From an uncultured cyanobacterium (GTDB lineage: Bacteria > Cyanobacteriota > Cyanobacteriia > Cyanobacteriales > Microcystaceae): DNA of 20,251 nucleotides. Below, piece after piece: positions 1,051-13,278 of this stretch. Position 1 is the first letter of the stretch; each line of letters opens with the position of its first letter. Below the pieces are notes generated by a model. It did no database searches, was not told the DNA's origin, and worked only from the letters and a program-made list of their open reading frames with translations. The stretch is taken from assembly GCA_963807635.1 (NCBI GenBank), contig CAWEDJ010000043.1, forward strand, positions 1 to 20,251, written 5' to 3'. The position numbers were made by a program, and so were the translations under genes.

Positions 1051-2445
1051 CTAAGCAAATTGCTCGGCAGCAACCCAGGCTCCATGAAAACCGTAGGGGA
1101 CTCGTTGGGGCATGATAATTCTGGCGATCGCGGGTTGGGTAAAGTTTTGAGCATCTAAAACAATTAACTCGGATTGCTCAGAGGCTTCGTGATAAACAAA
1201 AGTCAATAACCAACCATGATCTTCGGAATTTGCTTGGGGATGGGGAACAAACACCGCTTCTCCGCCATAACAATGGGGTTCAAAGGAATGAATTTCGGTT
1301 TTGCCCGTTTCTAGGTCATATTTAAGCAACCCATCAAATAAGGGCATTTCTCCCAATTGGGACTTTCCTGCATAGCCGTAACGATTTTTACGTCCTAAAT
1401 ATTTTTCATTAATCCGAGGAAATTCACAGGCCAGATCCCCTAAAGATTTTTCTTGAACGGCTCCTGTTTGTAGATTAAATCGCCACTCATAAAGATAGGG
1501 AATATTACCCGTACTATTAGCGTTTTCTTCAAAAATTCCTAAAGCATTGGTTGATTCCATACGACAGGCAATCAAAATGACCTCGTCTTCCGATTCATAG
1601 GCATTCAGGGTATGGAAACCGTAGCAACTAGGACTCTCGAACCAACGAATATCCGACGATTCACCATGACGGGGCAAAATGCCAAAACGACTGGGGGTTT
1701 CTGCTTCAAATAAAAACATGGGTTGACCCTGAGCCATGCGTTCTGGTCGGAAAGTTAAAGGAAAATCCAGAAAAATGGTGTAGTGTTCCGTAATGGCAAA
1801 ATCGTGCATCATTACGCCGACGGGCAATTCAATGGGAATCAATTTCACCAATTCGCCTTCGGGGGAAACAATACCGTATTGCAAAAAGGGCGGTTGAAAC
1901 AGAGAATAACCAAAAAAGAGCATTTCTCCTGTGACGGGATCAACTTTGGGGTGGGCAGTAAAAGCGGAAGTGAGCTTACCCTCAAAGTTTACGGGGCCTA
2001 CGGTATCTAGGGAGGGTAATTGAATTTGATGGGGTTCTCCTCCTTCCCAAACGGCCAAAAATTTACCACTATGCCAGACCAGCGCGGTATTTGCGGTATT
2101 TTTTCCTAGCCCGTAGGGATTATCTAATTGGGGCGGCTCTAATAAACCCGACCAGATGGCTTTTCCTGCTTCCTGTTCTTTTTCAAAGCCAAAGGTGCGG
2201 ATGTAGCGATTGTGATAACTGGCTTGTCCATTTTCAATACGCACACCATGTAACATTCCATCTCCGTCAAACCAATGGTATTGACCGATAGGGGGAAATT
2301 GGGGATTTGGCCCATTACGGACAAACATTCCGTTTAATTCGGGCGGAATTTCACCGATGATTTTGAGATTCTCTGCTTGAATTTCGGTTTCAACAGGAGC
2401 AAAGTTATCGAGTAAATAGGGATTGGTCGCCGTAATAGTGGTCAT
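1051..2445 (-). CDS. Carotenoid cleavage dioxygenase (RPE65/CCD family)
   Basis: 464 aa; RNGPNP, HWFDGDGM, four iron-binding His motifs (TAHPK, MMHDF, FHTLN, GFHG), EFPRIN, GGEAVFVP. Confidence 0.92.
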   Translation of the reverse strand: MTTITATNPYLLDNFAPVETEIQAENLKIIGEIPPELNGMFVRNGPNPQFPPIGQYHWFDGDGMLHGVRIENGQASYHNRYIRTFGFEKEQEAGKAIWSGLLEPPQLDNPYGLGKNTANTALVWHSGKFLAVWEGGEPHQIQLPSLDTVGPVNFEGKLTSAFTAHPKVDPVTGEMLFFGYSLFQPPFLQYGIVSPEGELVKLIPIELPVGVMMHDFAITEHYTIFLDFPLTFRPERMAQGQPMFLFEAETPSRFGILPRHGESSDIRWFESPSCYGFHTLNAYESEDEVILIACRMESTNALGIFEENANSTGNIPYLYEWRFNLQTGAVQEKSLGDLACEFPRINEKYLGRKNRYGYAGKSQLGEMPLFDGLLKYDLETGKTEIHSFEPHCYGGEAVFVPHPQANSEDHGWLLTFVYHEASEQSELIVLDAQNFTQPAIARIIMPQRVPYGFHGAWVAAEQFA

Positions 2446-7469: not shown

Positions 7470-8324
7470 TTAGTAATGTAAGGGGATTAAAATCAAAGGA
7501 AGAAAAGCTAAACCCAATAAAACCCAATTTAAAAAATTATTTTCAATTAACAAGGTATCTGGGGGTTCAATTAGATAATTAATACGGCTAATTAAACGAT
7601 TATCTTGATGATTGAATGCCGCACAAATCGCTTCAAAATCGGGAAAAATTGGAATTTCCTGCATATTTTTTGCGACCAACATCAGAGATTCTGCTAATAG
7701 TAATGGATCGACTTGTTGGGCCGCTTTTTTATCTGCCCGAACTTCTCTCATAAATAATAACTCTTGCCAAAGTTGTTCGGTTTGGGGGAGCCAAAAACTC
7801 ATCTGACGCAACCAACCCAAGCAGAAAAACCAAAAGGTATCCCGATAGTAATAATGGGCATTTTCGTGGGCGAGAACGGCTTGTAAATGCTCATCGTCTA
7901 GACTCTCTAATAATCCTTGACTAATCACTAATTCAGGATTCCAGAGACCAATTTGCGCACTGTAGGGGAATGGTGTCTCTAGGATGCGAGTGGGTTGATT
8001 TTGGATAAATCCTTTGGTGTAATACCGAATTTGTTGAATAGCTTTGGTTGCTTGCCAGAGTCGATACAAACCTAATCCCAAGCTCCACAGCAAAAACGCG
8101 ATCGCCAAACTATAACTTAACCAACTTGCCTTTAGACCAAACATCATCCCCTGATAACCCATTGAAACAACAGCCAGGGCAGTCATTAATAGTAAGACAG
8201 GGGGAAAAACAAAGAGAAATAGGGCTTTTTGCCAACAAAATTTTGATTCAGGACTTAAAATAGGGATTAATGCCCGTAATAACCAAGCAATGCCTATCGC
8301 CAAGATTAATATCATTAGGTGCAT
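7470..8324 (-). CDS. petP: M56 family (BlaR1-like) membrane metalloprotease, PetP-like
   Basis: N-terminal TM helices, AVLAHENAH zinc motif, EVRAD; immediately downstream of a BlaI-family gene and upstream of bcp, as recalled for Synechocystis slr0240-slr0242. Confidence 0.8.
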   Translation of the reverse strand: MHLMILILAIGIAWLLRALIPILSPESKFCWQKALFLFVFPPVLLLMTALAVVSMGYQGMMFGLKASWLSYSLAIAFLLWSLGLGLYRLWQATKAIQQIRYYTKGFIQNQPTRILETPFPYSAQIGLWNPELVISQGLLESLDDEHLQAVLAHENAHYYYRDTFWFFCLGWLRQMSFWLPQTEQLWQELLFMREVRADKKAAQQVDPLLLAESLMLVAKNMQEIPIFPDFEAICAAFNHQDNRLISRINYLIEPPDTLLIENNFLNWVLLGLAFLPLILIPLHY

Positions 8325-8331
8325 CTTAAAA

Positions 8332-8748
8332 CTACTCCCCCCGTTGAGAACGAATGGCTTTCAGTCGAGTTGCGATCGCGTCTAGTTGTTCAATGCTCGC
8401 CGTATCTAAACTATCAGCAAAGGAGGCGACCACATCGGGATTACTAATAGACAAAAATTGTTGCAACTGCTCATAGGACTTAATTGCCTTAGCCTGAGAC
8501 CTAGAAACGGTGGCTTTCCAGGAAAACGCCTTACCTTCCCTATGGCAGACTAACCAACCCTTTTGGGTCAGACGATTTAACACCGTTGTGACCGAAGAAT
8601 AGGCGAGTTCTCGGTCTGGATTGGCTAAAATTCGTTCATGAATATCTTTTACCGTCGCAATTTCCAGATCCCAAACAATCTGTAAAATCTCGCTCTCTAA
8701 GGGGCGAAGGGACAGTTGATGGGGACGATGGGGAGGGAGCCAAGACAT
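8332..8748 (-). CDS. petR: BlaI/MecI/CopY family repressor, PetR-like
   Basis: LESEILQIVW, ATVKDIH, ELAYSSVTTVLNRLTQKGWL; ATG at 8748 preferred over TTG at 8754. Confidence 0.82.
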   Translation of the reverse strand: MSWLPPHRPHQLSLRPLESEILQIVWDLEIATVKDIHERILANPDRELAYSSVTTVLNRLTQKGWLVCHREGKAFSWKATVSRSQAKAIKSYEQLQQFLSISNPDVVASFADSLDTASIEQLDAIATRLKAIRSQRGE

Positions 8749-8843
8749 AAGCAATAGAGATCGATAATTCCTAATGGGGTTAGTGTATCTTAGTAAATAA
8801 TACGTTTAATGCACTCATAGAGCAAATATTCCCAACGAAGCCT

Positions 8844-9677
8844 ATGACTCTTTCCCTTGATAAAACGAACCTAGCGATCGATTGGGAACTTCTCCCCGCC
8901 GATTACATTTTACCAGATGATCCTGTGGATAATGATACTCAACCCCTATTAGCCGAAGCCCTCAGAGAAGGCATTACGGAAGCTCAACTCCTTAAATCCA
9001 CTGGATTTATTGCTACCAATTTCGGAATTTGCTTGCGAGTGGCGGGCAAATTTGTTATCAAAGCTCCTGATTGGGTTTGGGTGCAAGAAACAAAAGAACA
9101 ACGCTCTGGCCGTCGTAGTTATACACCCCACCGAGAAGGAGATTTACCCCAGATAGTGATGGAATTTCTCTCAGAAACCGATGGTGGAGAATATTCTGTC
9201 TATCCTAATTTTCCCTACGGTAAATGGTACTACTATGAACAACTACTAAAAGTTCCCTATTACTGTATTTTTGAACCAGAAAGAGGACATCTGGAATGTT
9301 ATGTTTGGAAGCAAGGACATTATCAACCGTTGACTCCTAATGAGCAGGGTCTATTTTGGATAGAAACTCTAAATCTATTTTTAGGAGTTTGGCAAGGAGA
9401 AAGAGCCGCTCGCCAGGGCTATTGGTTGCGGTGGTGGAATGCTTCAGCAGAATTATTATTGTGGGGCAACGAAACAGCCCAGCAAGAACGTTTGAAGGCA
9501 GAACAGTCCCAACAAATTGCAGAACAAGCTCAACAAATTGCAGACCAGGCTCTTCAGGAATTAGAACAGGAGCGTCTGAAGGTTGTGCAAGCTCTTCAGG
9601 AAGCAGAACAACAAAAACAACAGGCTCGACGGTTAGCTGAAAAATTGAGAGAGTTAGGAGTTGATCCTAATAGCTGA
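8844..9677 (+). CDS. Uma2 family (DUF820) endonuclease-like protein with coiled-coil tail
   Basis: LPDDPVDN..QP, KAPDW, VMEFLS, WLRWW, C-terminal RLAEKLRELGVDP. Confidence 0.88.
   Translation: MTLSLDKTNLAIDWELLPADYILPDDPVDNDTQPLLAEALREGITEAQLLKSTGFIATNFGICLRVAGKFVIKAPDWVWVQETKEQRSGRRSYTPHREGDLPQIVMEFLSETDGGEYSVYPNFPYGKWYYYEQLLKVPYYCIFEPERGHLECYVWKQGHYQPLTPNEQGLFWIETLNLFLGVWQGERAARQGYWLRWWNASAELLLWGNETAQQERLKAEQSQQIAEQAQQIADQALQELEQERLKVVQALQEAEQQKQQARRLAEKLRELGVDPNS
9498..9551 (+). repeat. Intragenic 21 bp (heptad) tandem repeat in Uma2 tail
   Basis: GCAGAACAGTCCCAACAAATT / GCAGAACAAGCTCAACAAATT / GCAGACCAGGCT. Confidence 0.7.
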
Positions 9678-9772
9678 TTTAAAATTAGCATCTCTTTAAA
9701 TAAAATACAAAATCTCCCTTAAGTAAATTGCTTATTGATCGGTTATACTGGAGGAAATATTGAGGAAAAATT

Positions 9773-10042
9773 ATGGGACAACGATTAAAGCGATGGGAGT
9801 CACCCCGTCGAGAAGGTCGGAATGACAAGGGCAAAGGGGGTTCGGCACGACAACGACAACTGAAAAAACGACAACAGATGTTACGCCAGAAACTCCAAGA
9901 TAATTCCAATAACTCAGATAAGGGAAGAGATTTTATAAAGAAGTCTCTTCTTTTTTTGTGGAACAGCTACTTGCGTGTTAATCCTTATAGAAACAAGACC
10001 TACAGCATTTTCTTATTCAATCTCAACAGGTTAAAGACATAA
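9773..10042 (+). CDS. Small basic protein, candidate ArfA-like alternative ribosome rescue factor
   Basis: ATG with GAGG RBS (9762-9765) and TATACT -10-like hexamer (9744-9749); Arg/Lys-rich N-terminal ~42 aa with KGKGGS; in-frame terminator at 9924-9957. Function is inferred. Confidence 0.6.
   Translation: MGQRLKRWESPRREGRNDKGKGGSARQRQLKKRQQMLRQKLQDNSNNSDKGRDFIKKSLLFLWNSYLRVNPYRNKTYSIFLFNLNRLKT
9920..9957 (+). terminator. Intrinsic terminator inside the 9773 ORF
   Basis: GAAGAGA (9924-9930) pairs with TCTCTTC (9944-9950), extendable to about 14 bp with G-U pairs, followed by T7 (9951-9957). Confidence 0.7.
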
Positions 10043-10058
10043 TATATTATGTCCCTAC
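10036..10058 (-). repeat. Perfect 18 bp palindrome with adjacent GTAG, REP-like element
   Basis: GACATAATATATTATGTC (10036-10053) then CCTAC; the minus strand reads GTAG-GGACATAATATATTATGTC. Confidence 0.6.
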
Positions 10059-10092
10059 AGGATTTTGTCCATCACCTCAACGGCAAGTTTTG

Positions 10093-11667
10093 ATGATTAA
10101 AAGTTTACATTTTCAGAAAATTATTAATATTAAAAATTATCAAGATAAAGAGTGGTTAATTGTCTTAACTTTATCAGCATTTTTTTTATGGTTTATTGAT
10201 TTGGGAAGCGTCGCTCTCAGGGATTGGGATGAAGGTTATTATGCTACCGTTTCTCAGGATATGTTTAATCGAAATACTTGGCTTTATCCCACCTATCAAG
10301 GCCAGCCTTTTTTATTAAAACCCCCTTTATTGTTGTGGCTCATTCATCTGAGTTATTCCCTCGTGGGTATTAGTGAATGGACATCCCGTTTACCGTCTGC
10401 ATTTTTAGCCGCTTGTGGTGTGCCTCTTCTTTATCTAATGGGTCGAGAATTATTTATTAATCGTTCTGCGGCTATTTTTTCGGCAGGTGTTTATTTAACG
10501 TTATTGCCTGTAGTCAGATTAGGACGACTCGCCATGTTAGATGGCATGATTAACACCTTTCTTTTATTAGCGATTTTAAGTTTATTTAAAAGCAAAAAGT
10601 CATCTATTTGGTTAACAGGAATTGGGATTGGATTGGGGCTAATTACCTTAACAAAAGGAATTTTAGTCTTGGCATTGGGCGCGATTATATTTGTTTTTAT
10701 TGTTCTTGATAGGCGTTGGAAAGTTTTACTAAATCCCTACTTATGGATTGGATTAATTCTCGGATTCACACCCGTTTTTCTCTGGTACGGTTTGCAAATT
10801 GAACATTACGGACAAACCTTTATTCAGGTTCATTTTCAATCCCAAAGCTTTGATCGTCTTTCCACTGCGGTAGAAGGGAATACGGGGCCAATTTGGTTTT
10901 ATTTGATCGATTTATTAAAATATTCCTGTCCTTGGTTATTCTTTTTTTTCCCAGGCTTTTATTTAGCCGTTAAACACCATCAACAAAGTTGGGCAAAATT
11001 AGGATTAATCGGTAGCATTTTATATTTTGGGACGGTTTCCTTGATGACAACTAAACTGCCCTGGTATCTCATGCCTTTCTATATTTTCTTTGCTTTGATT
11101 ACAGGAGCCTATTTAGATCATCTCTATTATTGCCCTAAAAAATATCCTCGTTTAATCTTTTATTTACTCTGTCTTTGTGGAATTGTCACCTTGGGAGGAG
11201 CCATTTATTTTACTTTTTTTGAACCAAAATTCTCGTTAGTTTTAATTACGCTAACAATCTCTATCACTTTTATTTTGACTGCAATTCAATTTTGGAAAAA
11301 CCAGTCTAATTTTATTCCAACTTTAATGATTGGTATTTATTTTACGTTAACTTTTTTGGTAATTTCTCCCCTCTGGCTTTGGGAATTAAATGAAGCTTTT
11401 CCCGTCAAACCTGTCGCCCAACTAATTAAACAATCGACTCCCTTAGATACCATTATTTATACCTCCTTTGCCTATAGCCGTACGAGTTTAGACTTTTATA
11501 GCGATCGCCACATTCTAGCAGTCGATCGCAGTAAGCTAGAAGAATTAAAGCAAAAACCCAATTATTTTTTGTTGGAAGAGGAGACTTTAGACAAATTAGA
11601 CTTAAAGGATTACCAACATCTAGGAAAAGCAGAAGGTTTTGTGTTAATCTGGTCAAATCCTCATTAA
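10093..11667 (+). CDS. ArnT/PMT-like (GT83/GT39) polytopic membrane glycosyltransferase
   Basis: LRDWDEGYYA, KPPL, SEWTSRLPSA, AMLD, LTKG, TKLPWY; many TM helices. Confidence 0.88.
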   Translation: MIKSLHFQKIINIKNYQDKEWLIVLTLSAFFLWFIDLGSVALRDWDEGYYATVSQDMFNRNTWLYPTYQGQPFLLKPPLLLWLIHLSYSLVGISEWTSRLPSAFLAACGVPLLYLMGRELFINRSAAIFSAGVYLTLLPVVRLGRLAMLDGMINTFLLLAILSLFKSKKSSIWLTGIGIGLGLITLTKGILVLALGAIIFVFIVLDRRWKVLLNPYLWIGLILGFTPVFLWYGLQIEHYGQTFIQVHFQSQSFDRLSTAVEGNTGPIWFYLIDLLKYSCPWLFFFFPGFYLAVKHHQQSWAKLGLIGSILYFGTVSLMTTKLPWYLMPFYIFFALITGAYLDHLYYCPKKYPRLIFYLLCLCGIVTLGGAIYFTFFEPKFSLVLITLTISITFILTAIQFWKNQSNFIPTLMIGIYFTLTFLVISPLWLWELNEAFPVKPVAQLIKQSTPLDTIIYTSFAYSRTSLDFYSDRHILAVDRSKLEELKQKPNYFLLEEETLDKLDLKDYQHLGKAEGFVLIWSNPH

Positions 11668-11694
11668 ATATTATCTTAAAATTATTGATTGACT

Positions 11695-13278
11695 ATGACA
11701 ACGAAACGATTAATTTTAGCCGTTTTAACAGTGATTTCTTTGATTCCTTTTTTGCTATCTCTCTTCGGTAGTCTCAATGAAGCCCAAATCCAATCTAATT
11801 TAGAACTTTCTCAGACAAATTTACTGTTGGATGCGACTGAAATTCAAAATGATTTAGGTGAGCTTAGTCAAGAACTTTCGGCGGAACAGATTAAATCTTT
11901 AGAAAAACTGTTACTGGGAAATGAACCCTATAGTATTGCGGAAGATCAATACGAAGAAGCACGGAATTCAATCAAAAAAAATGTCGATCAACTCAATAAT
12001 CAATTAACTAAAGTAGCGAGTCTAACTAATTCAACAGAAGATAATTTTAGTGATTTTAAATTAATTCAAAAAAATACTTCTCAAGAAAAACTCATTGAAA
12101 AAAGTATTGGTAAAGTTAGAACTAATCTTTATGAGACAGATTTAAAAATTGGCTTAATAAAAGCGAGACAGGATAAGCTTTCAGAGGCACAACAAACCTG
12201 GGAAAAATTAATTAATGTAGAATCTGTCGATAATCCATCAGATAAAATCCAGAAAACCGCCAAGATCTTAAAAAATTTGTGGAGTAATCCCGCGATCGCT
12301 GATAAAAATGCAGAATTAATTTTGACCGAAAATCTTCAGGGTTGGTTTCGCTATCAAGCCTTAGAGCGTTTCTATGAAATTACGAATCAAGCAGAGGCAA
12401 AAACCCAATTAGAACAACAGCAAACTGTTATTGCAACCCAAGCCATTTTAAAACTATTGGCGATTAGTACCCTACCCCTATTGGGCGGAATGTTAGGAGT
12501 TGGTCTTTTAGTGTTTTTATTACTACAATTGTTGATCAAAAAAGAAGAAGCAATTCTAGCAAATTTTTATCAAAAGACTTGGGAAACACCCTGGGATTGG
12601 GAAATAATTTGGCAAGTTTTGATTGTTGGTTTCTTTTTTCTGGGACAAATCGCTCTGCCCCTTTTGTTGGGATTTATTCATTTTGACGCATCAGCACTGA
12701 ATTTACGGGGAAAAGCCTATTATGTCTTAGCCAGCTATGGCGCAATGACGGCGGGTGGTCTTTTGGTGCTGTATCTTTCCCTCAAATCTTTTTTTCCCTT
12801 GCCCCAGGATTGGTTTCGGTTTAGTTTAGGCGATCGCTGGTTTTTGTGGGGGAGTGGGGGTTATCTCGTTGCGTTACCCTTGGTGGTGATTGTTTCTTTG
12901 ATTAATCAAACCGTTTGGCAGGGACAAGGAGGCAGTAATCCCCTCTTATTTTTAGCCCTAGAAGCCCAAGATAAAGTCGTTTTAGCCATCTTCTTTTTTA
13001 CGGCATCGATCGCGGCTCCCTTTTTTGAAGAAATGATGTTTCGCGGATTTTTATTACCGTCCTTGACGCGCTACGTTCCCGTGTGGGCGGCCATTGGTTT
13101 AAGTAGTTTGCTATTTGCCCTTGCTCACTTGAATTTATCGGAAGTTTTACCCCTAGCAATGTTAGGAATTATTCTCGGTGTGGTTTATACGCGATCGCGT
13201 AATTTATTGGCTTCGATTTTATTACATAGTTTATGGAATAGTGGCACATTAATCAGTCTATTTATCTTAGGAAGTTGA
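11695..13278 (+). CDS. CPBP (CAAX/Abi) family intramembrane metalloprotease with large N-terminal soluble domain
   Basis: C-terminal APFFEEMMFRG, FALAH and HSLWN motifs; ATG at 11695. Confidence 0.88.
   Translation: MTTKRLILAVLTVISLIPFLLSLFGSLNEAQIQSNLELSQTNLLLDATEIQNDLGELSQELSAEQIKSLEKLLLGNEPYSIAEDQYEEARNSIKKNVDQLNNQLTKVASLTNSTEDNFSDFKLIQKNTSQEKLIEKSIGKVRTNLYETDLKIGLIKARQDKLSEAQQTWEKLINVESVDNPSDKIQKTAKILKNLWSNPAIADKNAELILTENLQGWFRYQALERFYEITNQAEAKTQLEQQQTVIATQAILKLLAISTLPLLGGMLGVGLLVFLLLQLLIKKEEAILANFYQKTWETPWDWEIIWQVLIVGFFFLGQIALPLLLGFIHFDASALNLRGKAYYVLASYGAMTAGGLLVLYLSLKSFFPLPQDWFRFSLGDRWFLWGSGGYLVALPLVVIVSLINQTVWQGQGGSNPLLFLALEAQDKVVLAIFFFTASIAAPFFEEMMFRGFLLPSLTRYVPVWAAIGLSSLLFALAHLNLSEVLPLAMLGIILGVVYTRSRNLLASILLHSLWNSGTLISLFILGS

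Follow-up and report, generated by a model that had tools for sequence, protein, structure and literature searches.

A conserved cyanobacterial family of small basic proteins encoded upstream of an in-frame terminator: candidate ribosome rescue factors, probably gated by trans-translation

Can a bacterial gene be built so that its transcript ends before its reading frame does, and what would the product of such a gene be for? This question is raised by a small open frame in a 20,251-nt stretch of DNA (the window) from an uncultured cyanobacterium of the Microcystaceae. The frame (positions 9773 to 10042 of the forward strand, on which all window features lie unless stated otherwise) starts with ATG, 7 nt downstream of a GAGG ribosome-binding site (9762 to 9765), and comprises 89 codons (89 aa) followed by a TAA stop. 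It begins with a conserved basic domain (codons 1 to 42, 9773 to 9898), delimited by alignments, codon statistics, and an AlphaFold2 model, and continues with a variable polar linker whose length differs among aligned homologues (codons 43 to 50 plus one nucleotide of codon 51, the first; 9899 to 9923). Within the frame there follow a terminator stem-loop with a purine-rich 5' arm and a pyrimidine-rich 3' arm (9924 to 9950), a tract of seven T residues taken as the predicted 3' end of the transcript (9951 to 9957), and a final stretch without any sign of selection, which is probably untranslated as a rule (9958 to 10042). A previous inspection of the letters (the sequence-only reading) had proposed that the gene encodes an ArfA-like ribosome rescue factor, and had placed the residues NDKGKGGS at codons 17 to 24. 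The motif was indeed found there, as N17-D18-K19-G20-K21-G22-G23-S24.

Folding of the RNA from 9900 to 9965 yielded −20.4 kcal/mol (z = −3.88), a value equaled by none of 200 shuffled sequences. The core stem (9924 to 9934 paired with 9940 to 9950) has 11 bp and −11.3 kcal/mol, and the T7 tract follows directly 3' of it. Since no in-frame stop lies upstream of the T run, a transcript ending there would carry about 61 codons and no stop codon. Hairpin and T tract therefore lie within the frame, unpreceded by a stop, as had been described, and at the sequence level the gene appears designed to yield a stop-less mRNA of ∼61 codons. A rule-based terminator scan of 9500 to 10300, which was superseded by the folding, returned no site; possible extension of the stem into the T run may, we think, explain this.

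Three TAA triplets just 5' of the hairpin (9901, 9910, and 9919) are all in frame +2, none being in frame with the ORF, and the sequence-only reading had cautioned that a single assembly indel might hide one of them. However, four more assemblies of the genus (L002, L003, L060, and L061) retained the same frame with zero indels between codon 39 and the T run, so an assembly indel was dismissed as the origin of the open frame. Apart from these triplets, the transcript length of only ∼240 nt might suggest that the locus is an artefact of this kind or a small noncoding RNA with its own terminator. Against both stand the agreement of all five assemblies of the genus, a frame open up to the hairpin in 111 homologous loci, and an Rfam search that gave zero matches across the whole window. 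The codons themselves were also informative: over the 36 codons from K6 to L41 in the 111 loci, entropy was 0.49 bits at first, 0.23 at second, and 1.29 at third codon positions, and synonymous exceeded nonsynonymous differences by 2.84:1. This excess at third positions and of synonymous changes indicated that the frame is translated and belongs to a real coding gene, and we consider a noncoding RNA or an artefact extremely improbable.

The window protein matched 1751 predicted proteins of 48 to 156 aa (E ≤ 0.01), none of which contains a Pfam domain, and those named by their source are mostly "hypothetical" and cyanobacterial. A profile of the first 50 residues retrieved 452 clusters (50% identity) at E ≤ 0.001 and 391 at E ≤ 1e-10 from 1.84 billion proteins. 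Of 41 related genomes searched in six frames, 32 carry the gene, and so do 114 of the 401 sampled across the phylum; the latter carriers cover most families of the order to which the window belongs and several further families in the class. The same search found it in none of the 29 genomes of one family with small genomes (f33; 1.6 to 3 Mb), and twelve further families contributed 2 carriers among 225 genomes. Named records include Snowella, Merismopediaceae, Chamaesiphon, Coleofasciculus, Nostoc, Anabaena, Dolichospermum, Tolypothrix, Calothrix, Pleurocapsa, Pseudanabaena, Phormidium, Lyngbya, and Stanieria. Copies were also seen in metagenome-assembled genomes (MAGs) labelled Chloroflexaceae, Sericytochromatia, Tatlockia, and Alphaproteobacteria (L073, L093, L116, and L120), which are probably binning errors rather than cases of gene transfer. 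The breadth of these matches (1751 proteins and 114 of 401 genomes), together with the synonymous ratio of 2.84, bears out that the gene is real and conserved.

Conservation is concentrated in the N-terminal part. In 88 aligned sequences, K6, W8, E9, S10, P11, R12, G15, R16, N17, K19, G20, G22, G23, R26, R28, Q29, K32, and L41 were invariant, and the glycine-rich motif took the family form KG[KR]GGS, in which K19, G20, G22, and G23 never varied. With these 18 invariant residues within codons 1 to 42 and a variable linker thereafter, homologues conserve the N terminus and diverge in the remainder, as the sequence-only reading had anticipated, and the alignments point to strong purifying selection on the first ∼42 residues. 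AlphaFold2 modeled residues 1 to 22 as coil and a helix from residue 23 onward (mean pLDDT, 70.7), confidence being highest for residues 31 to 40. A Pfam search with the window protein gave no family at threshold and only the unrelated PF04179 and PF06683 at E ≤ 10, and an NCBIfam search gave nothing meaningful. Pfam searches with 88 members produced only weak matches of coiled-coil type (e.g., Syntaxin in 20 of 88; best E value, 0.01). The sole match in a profile search of the PDB was Nop14 (E = 0.074), which we took to be a chance match. In the ESM Atlas the protein retrieved its own kind alone (unnamed cyanobacterial clusters), collections of phages and plasmids had zero matches, and a literature search covering few subscription journals found no paper describing the family.

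Loci encoding homologues (130 in total: 20 from related genomes, 30 from the phylum sample, and 80 from database records) were reduced to 114 unique ones, 111 of which could be scored. In two of the others the frame runs off the contig (L040 and L072), and the third (L020) has a TAG at codon 8. In this copy (1522 to 1671, reverse strand), the TAG replaces the invariant Trp codon of the family in an otherwise intact domain, and it could be a sequencing error, a codon that is read through, or the mark of a recent pseudogene. For each scored locus, we located the first hairpin beyond codon 38 that has a T-rich tail and compared its start with the position of the first in-frame stop. In all 111 loci, which are the best-scoring ones, the hairpin and T-rich tract preceded that stop, with hairpins of −11 to −24 kcal/mol and 7 to 16 bp. 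Given that the same detector (ΔG ≤ −11) found only 0.27 hairpins per kb on both strands of 393 kb of DNA flanking 57 of the 114 loci, chance was dismissed as an explanation. Moreover, the hairpin occurs in all three reading frames and in 104 distinct sequences among the 111 loci, which indicates that the RNA structure is conserved and not a peptide encoded by it. Beyond the hairpin, ORFs end at widely different points (58 to 159 residues in total). The median distance from the hairpin to the next stop was 46 nt in frame 0, 38.5 nt in frame +1, and 32 nt in frame +2, near-identical proteins of the genus use the other frame of the window past the T run, and one relative carries a 1-nt indel past the terminator. 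The similar stop distances, the switch of frame, and the indel argue that there is no coding selection past the terminator, and the impression that the residues beyond the hairpin are unselected was thereby confirmed.

The hairpins also have an unusual composition. Their 5' arms consisted of at least 90% purines in 96 of 111 loci versus 3 of 107 control terminator-like hairpins of the same loci (mean purine fraction, 0.95 versus 0.51), so that the arms are nearly pure purine on the 5' side and pyrimidine on the 3' side. Homopurine and homopyrimidine arms leave few stop codons in any frame, and at least two frames were free of stops across the hairpin in 110 of 111 loci (controls, 73 of 107). 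We read this arm composition as a probable result of selection for a translated hairpin that is stop-free in any frame, although other causes are possible.

Ordinary stop codons do occur at the margins of the family. Of 15 low-scoring, divergent matches fetched besides the 111 best-scoring loci, nine (L174 to L182) have their stop at or after a hairpin with T tract; in L181 and L182 the stop abuts the T tract. The other six (L170, L171, L172, L173, L183, and L184) have an ordinary stop directly after the domain and encode 42 to 51 residues. In addition, a search for short proteins returned 13 database entries of 40 to 47 residues, for instance from Spirulina subsalsa and a Prochlorotrichaceae MAG; in three of them (P0262, P0271, and P0274), similarity to the family is lost before the end of the domain, suggesting frameshifts. 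Even among the 111 loci, 13 have a stop no more than 9 nt from the hairpin and 20 no more than 12 nt, and a stop so close might fall inside the transcript. The claim that the terminator always comes before the first stop thus held for all 111 scoreable loci and failed for 6 of the 15 divergent loci and the 13 short proteins; likewise, the stop before the hairpin that the sequence-only reading named as contrary evidence is absent from the main clade (0 of 111) and confined to this minority. The predicted stop-less design is the rule in the family, but it is not universal. Since the stop-bearing relatives end at 40 to 51 aa, the N-terminal ∼42 residues are marked as the functional unit and the rest as dispensable. 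Four of the divergent loci (L171 and L172 of genus g3, L183, and L184) form a subfamily with K-S-W-E-S-P-R-K-M ... A-S-A-R-L-R-Q and an ordinary stop at 42 to 50 residues. A conserved ORF begins ∼20 nt 3' of the short gene in L171 and L172, and L183 and L184 show a terminator-like hairpin and T run after the stop.

Relatives with normal stops, and the 13 of 111 loci whose stop is no more than 9 nt from the hairpin, could mean that the gene encodes an ordinary small protein made up to the downstream stop, with a terminator that is leaky or suppressed by ribosomes, or else that the hairpin is an attenuator for the downstream gene. A closely following ribosome could suppress termination, and the RNA 3' end is itself a sequence-based prediction. 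However, a tail with no conserved frame, length, or sequence is difficult to reconcile with a protein made to the downstream stop, as is a terminator preceding the stop in 111 of 111 loci at a background of 0.27 per kb.

RNA data and gene order bear on the same alternative. Five metatranscriptome runs contained 9 to 16% of the sampled words, and four runs (two studies) were compared as contigs, which cover 9693 to 9922. One contig corresponds exactly to 9718 to 9912 and another stops at 9922, contigs attesting presence in RNA libraries but neither ends nor levels of transcripts; a further one (9519 to 9900) also takes in the end of the upstream gene. In the four runs, no RNA contig was found over 9932 to 10012. 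We regard this pattern as a weak hint of a transcript finishing at the hairpin, and it counts weakly against synthesis up to the downstream stop. The contigs differ from the window at 7 sites within 9773 to 9850, all at third codon positions and, by our reading of the codons, synonymous. Two of the contigs start at 9718 and 9693, both 5' of the hexamer TATACT (9744 to 9749) that the sequence-only reading had taken for a −10-like element; its role is doubtful because RNA contigs begin upstream of it. A consensus scan detected a promoter-like site (TTTAAA, a 17-nt spacer, and TAAAAT; 9678 to 9706), a candidate promoter of the small transcript, which may fit the contig starts better; the contig beginning at 9718 is a weak hint in its favor.

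In the window, the gene is preceded by a putative Uma2 endonuclease gene (8844 to 9677) and followed by genes for a PMT_2-type glycosyltransferase (10090 to 11667) and an Rce1-like (CPBP) protease (11689 to 13278), which flank its region. Farther upstream on the reverse strand (7473 to 8754), a membrane metalloprotease (weak Peptidase_M48, BlaR1-type M56) and a Penicillinase_R (BlaI-type) repressor (100 bits) look like a BlaR1/BlaI-like sensor-repressor module. No conserved partner gene was detected across the 114 loci. The commonest neighbor, and the sole recurrent one, was a Peptidase_M48 gene situated directly upstream in the same orientation (27 of 114 loci; e.g., L011, 1826 to 2785, and L013, 1958 to 2836), and the downstream genes differ among loci and often lie on the opposite strand. 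Such varying neighbors and opposite-strand downstream genes make a leader-peptide or attenuator role unlikely, and, taken with the features of the tail and terminator, we judge an ordinary small protein or an attenuator to be improbable.

If the product acts in ribosome rescue, it does so beside a well-equipped machinery. The genome of origin encodes tmRNA (121 bits; tag ANNIVSFKRVAVAA), SmpB, RF1, RF2, ArfB (NF006718; L024, 187 bits), whose gene is separate from the small gene, release factor H (PrfH; L023, 242 to 865, contig C83; TIGR03072 at 253 bits), and an RqcH-like protein, and it gave no match to the ArfA family PF03889 at E ≤ 1. The RF2 frame (L022, 1396 to 2484, reverse strand) lacks a start codon at its N terminus. 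The prfB gene typically uses a programmed +1 frameshift, which would account for this. The small gene and ArfB were found together in 58 genomes, the small gene alone in 56, and ArfB alone in 38, 29 of which belong to family f33; related genomes among those counted are not independent cases. With 58 genomes carrying both, the two genes are not complementary. E. coli, too, carries ArfA and ArfB together, and co-occurrence with ArfB neither helps nor hurts the rescue interpretation much. According to the available part of a survey of 15,259 genomes, its Cyanobacteriota group of 162 genomes has ssrA in 155, arfB in 90, arfA in none, and rqcH in 161 (PMC11633108); in the accessible text of an earlier survey, ArfB is reported for 25 of 55 cyanobacteria (PMC4235212).

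These findings suggest the following model. The gene product would be a basic domain of ∼42 residues, a conserved coil containing W-E-S-P-R and G-R-N-D-K-G-K-G-G-S and then a basic helix. Transcription would end at the intrinsic terminator within the frame, leaving a stop-less mRNA on which ribosomes would reach the 3' end and stall. By analogy with arfA and brfA, working tmRNA-SmpB should lead to tagging and degradation of the peptide, and when trans-translation is saturated or lost, an untagged peptide of ∼61 residues would be released and accumulate. Through its basic segments it might then bind nonstop ribosomes at the decoding site and the vacant mRNA channel and cause hydrolysis of the peptidyl-tRNA; recruitment of a class I release factor, the route taken by ArfA and BrfA, would be the likeliest means. 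That the gene follows a stop-less, tmRNA-gated design seems to us highly probable from what its homologues share. We favor ribosome rescue as its candidate function because arfA and brfA, the only genes of this layout described in the available part of PMC8012679, both encode rescue factors gated by trans-translation. Also counted in its favor were the tmRNA, SmpB, RF1, and RF2 on which such a factor would depend, all encoded in the genome, and the 56 genomes of the class that carry the gene and lack ArfB. The presence of ArfB, PrfH, and RqcH in the genome was counted against it. A complex prediction that paired the 61-residue product (alignment of 88 rows) with RF2 of the genome (27 rows) was run without controls and scored 0.00 against a mark of 0.32, which speaks neither for nor against binding. 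On balance, the analogy makes a rescue function slightly better than an even bet.

The strongest competitor is a protein that shares the nonstop mRNA and the tmRNA gating and has another job, such as a stress factor that binds RNA or ribosomes and, for instance, silences or protects the latter, or a regulator reporting an overload of rescue. The sequence-only reading had likewise allowed for another tmRNA-sensing protein. All evidence for the stop-less design applies equally to such a protein, homology to rescue factors of any kind was not detected (Pfam, PDB profile search, and hhalign), and the backups ArfB, PrfH, and RqcH are present, the gene and ArfB co-occurring in 58 genomes. Small basic cyanobacterial proteins are also known to bind ribosomes for other purposes, e.g., cS24/Ssr3189 as described in the excerpt available (PMC13640635). 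On the other hand, both characterized genes of this layout are rescue factors, as noted above, KGKGGS resembles the channel-binding motif of ArfA, and a factor that accumulates only upon failure of rescue is most simply a substitute for it. We therefore hold a different job to be the less likely alternative, though one to be taken seriously. The most far-reaching version of the rescue reading, a further, independently evolved, cyanobacteria-specific, release factor-dependent rescue family that is switched on only when trans-translation fails and whose hairpin arms evolved against stops, receives a probability of about 0.5. If it is right, the arfA-like column of rescue systems, which is empty for cyanobacteria in the accessible part of the large survey (0 of 162 genomes, PMC11633108), would be filled for the whole phylum. 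The regulatory layout by itself singled out a conserved, unnamed cyanobacterial family, and the purine/pyrimidine hairpin design offers a searchable signature for more such genes. Culturable carriers (Nostoc, Anabaena, Tolypothrix, Chamaesiphon, and Stanieria) make the claim directly testable.

How, then, does the family relate to known systems? In the portion of PMC8012679 available, ArfA is described as restricted to beta- and gammaproteobacteria, with BrfA limited to Bacillus; truncated mRNAs give rise to both, and trans-translation represses them. The same text states that arfA and brfA were found by genetic screens and that more small release factor-recruiting proteins, invisible to homology searches, are expected. 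ArfA (YhdL, PF03889) and the window protein are both small and have a stop-less mRNA layout in common, predicted in the case of the window gene. The available part of 10.1101/465609 describes E. coli arfA mRNA as shortened both by RNase III and by termination, and the KGKGS motif of ArfA as binding the empty mRNA channel. This motif, within a basic stretch, resembles K-G-K-G-G-S, but it lies in ArfA's C-terminal tail and near the N terminus here. hhalign aligned the two proteins over the motif region only, pairing REGRNDKGKGGSAR with RVEKNKKGKGSYMR at a probability of 2%, BLASTP against ArfA returned nothing at E ≤ 100, and PF03889 did not match the window protein at E ≤ 10, nor was it among the 25 of 32 matched families listed for 88 members. 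These three results ruled out membership in the ArfA family and agree with the earlier suggestion that the family is distinct from it.

ArfT of Francisella, too, is a basic peptide of small size, in which K-K-G-G-S lies close to a basic run. Its motif reads KKGGSTNKK in the excerpt of 10.1101/465609, which describes a protein of 40 aa that recruits RF1 or RF2 and is said not to be regulated like ArfA. The string WESPR is absent from the supplement of Burroughs and Aravind (1056 ArfT-like sequences and an ArfT repeat alignment), and their KGG/ArfT-like family was set apart on the basis of this supplement and the Pfam search rather than a direct alignment with ArfT. ArfB, unlike the window gene, ends in an ordinary stop and contains a GGQ hydrolase domain of its own. 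The cyanobacterial protein cS24/Ssr3189 (COG5794) shares a small size and a very basic conserved N terminus, has a disordered C terminus, and binds RNA and the ribosome, as given in the part of PMC13640635 available. That text lists K9, R14, and N15 as invariant, the first 23 residues as conserved, an N-terminal helix, and homologues in Paulinella chromatophora and several algae. The window family has invariant K6, W8 to R12, and G15 to N17, a helix from residue 23, and 0 of 29 carriers in family f33, and identity with cS24, judged by that description, was rejected.

A counterpart in layout is BrfA (YqkK) of B. subtilis, which depends on RF2. The two families differ in distribution, BrfA being found in Bacillus and the window family in cyanobacteria, and the KH motif that the available part of PMC8012679 gives for BrfA and ArfA is absent here, there being no His in the conserved domain. 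The profile search of the PDB at E ≤ 10 matched no ArfA, BrfA, or other rescue-factor chain. We assume that a BrfA chain is among the PDB entries. Both proteins are small and basic, and both genes have a terminator inside the ORF: the accessible text on BrfA places a rho-independent terminator before the stop and puts the active form at ∼62 of 72 codons (PMC8012679), compared with ∼61 of 89 codons predicted for the window gene.
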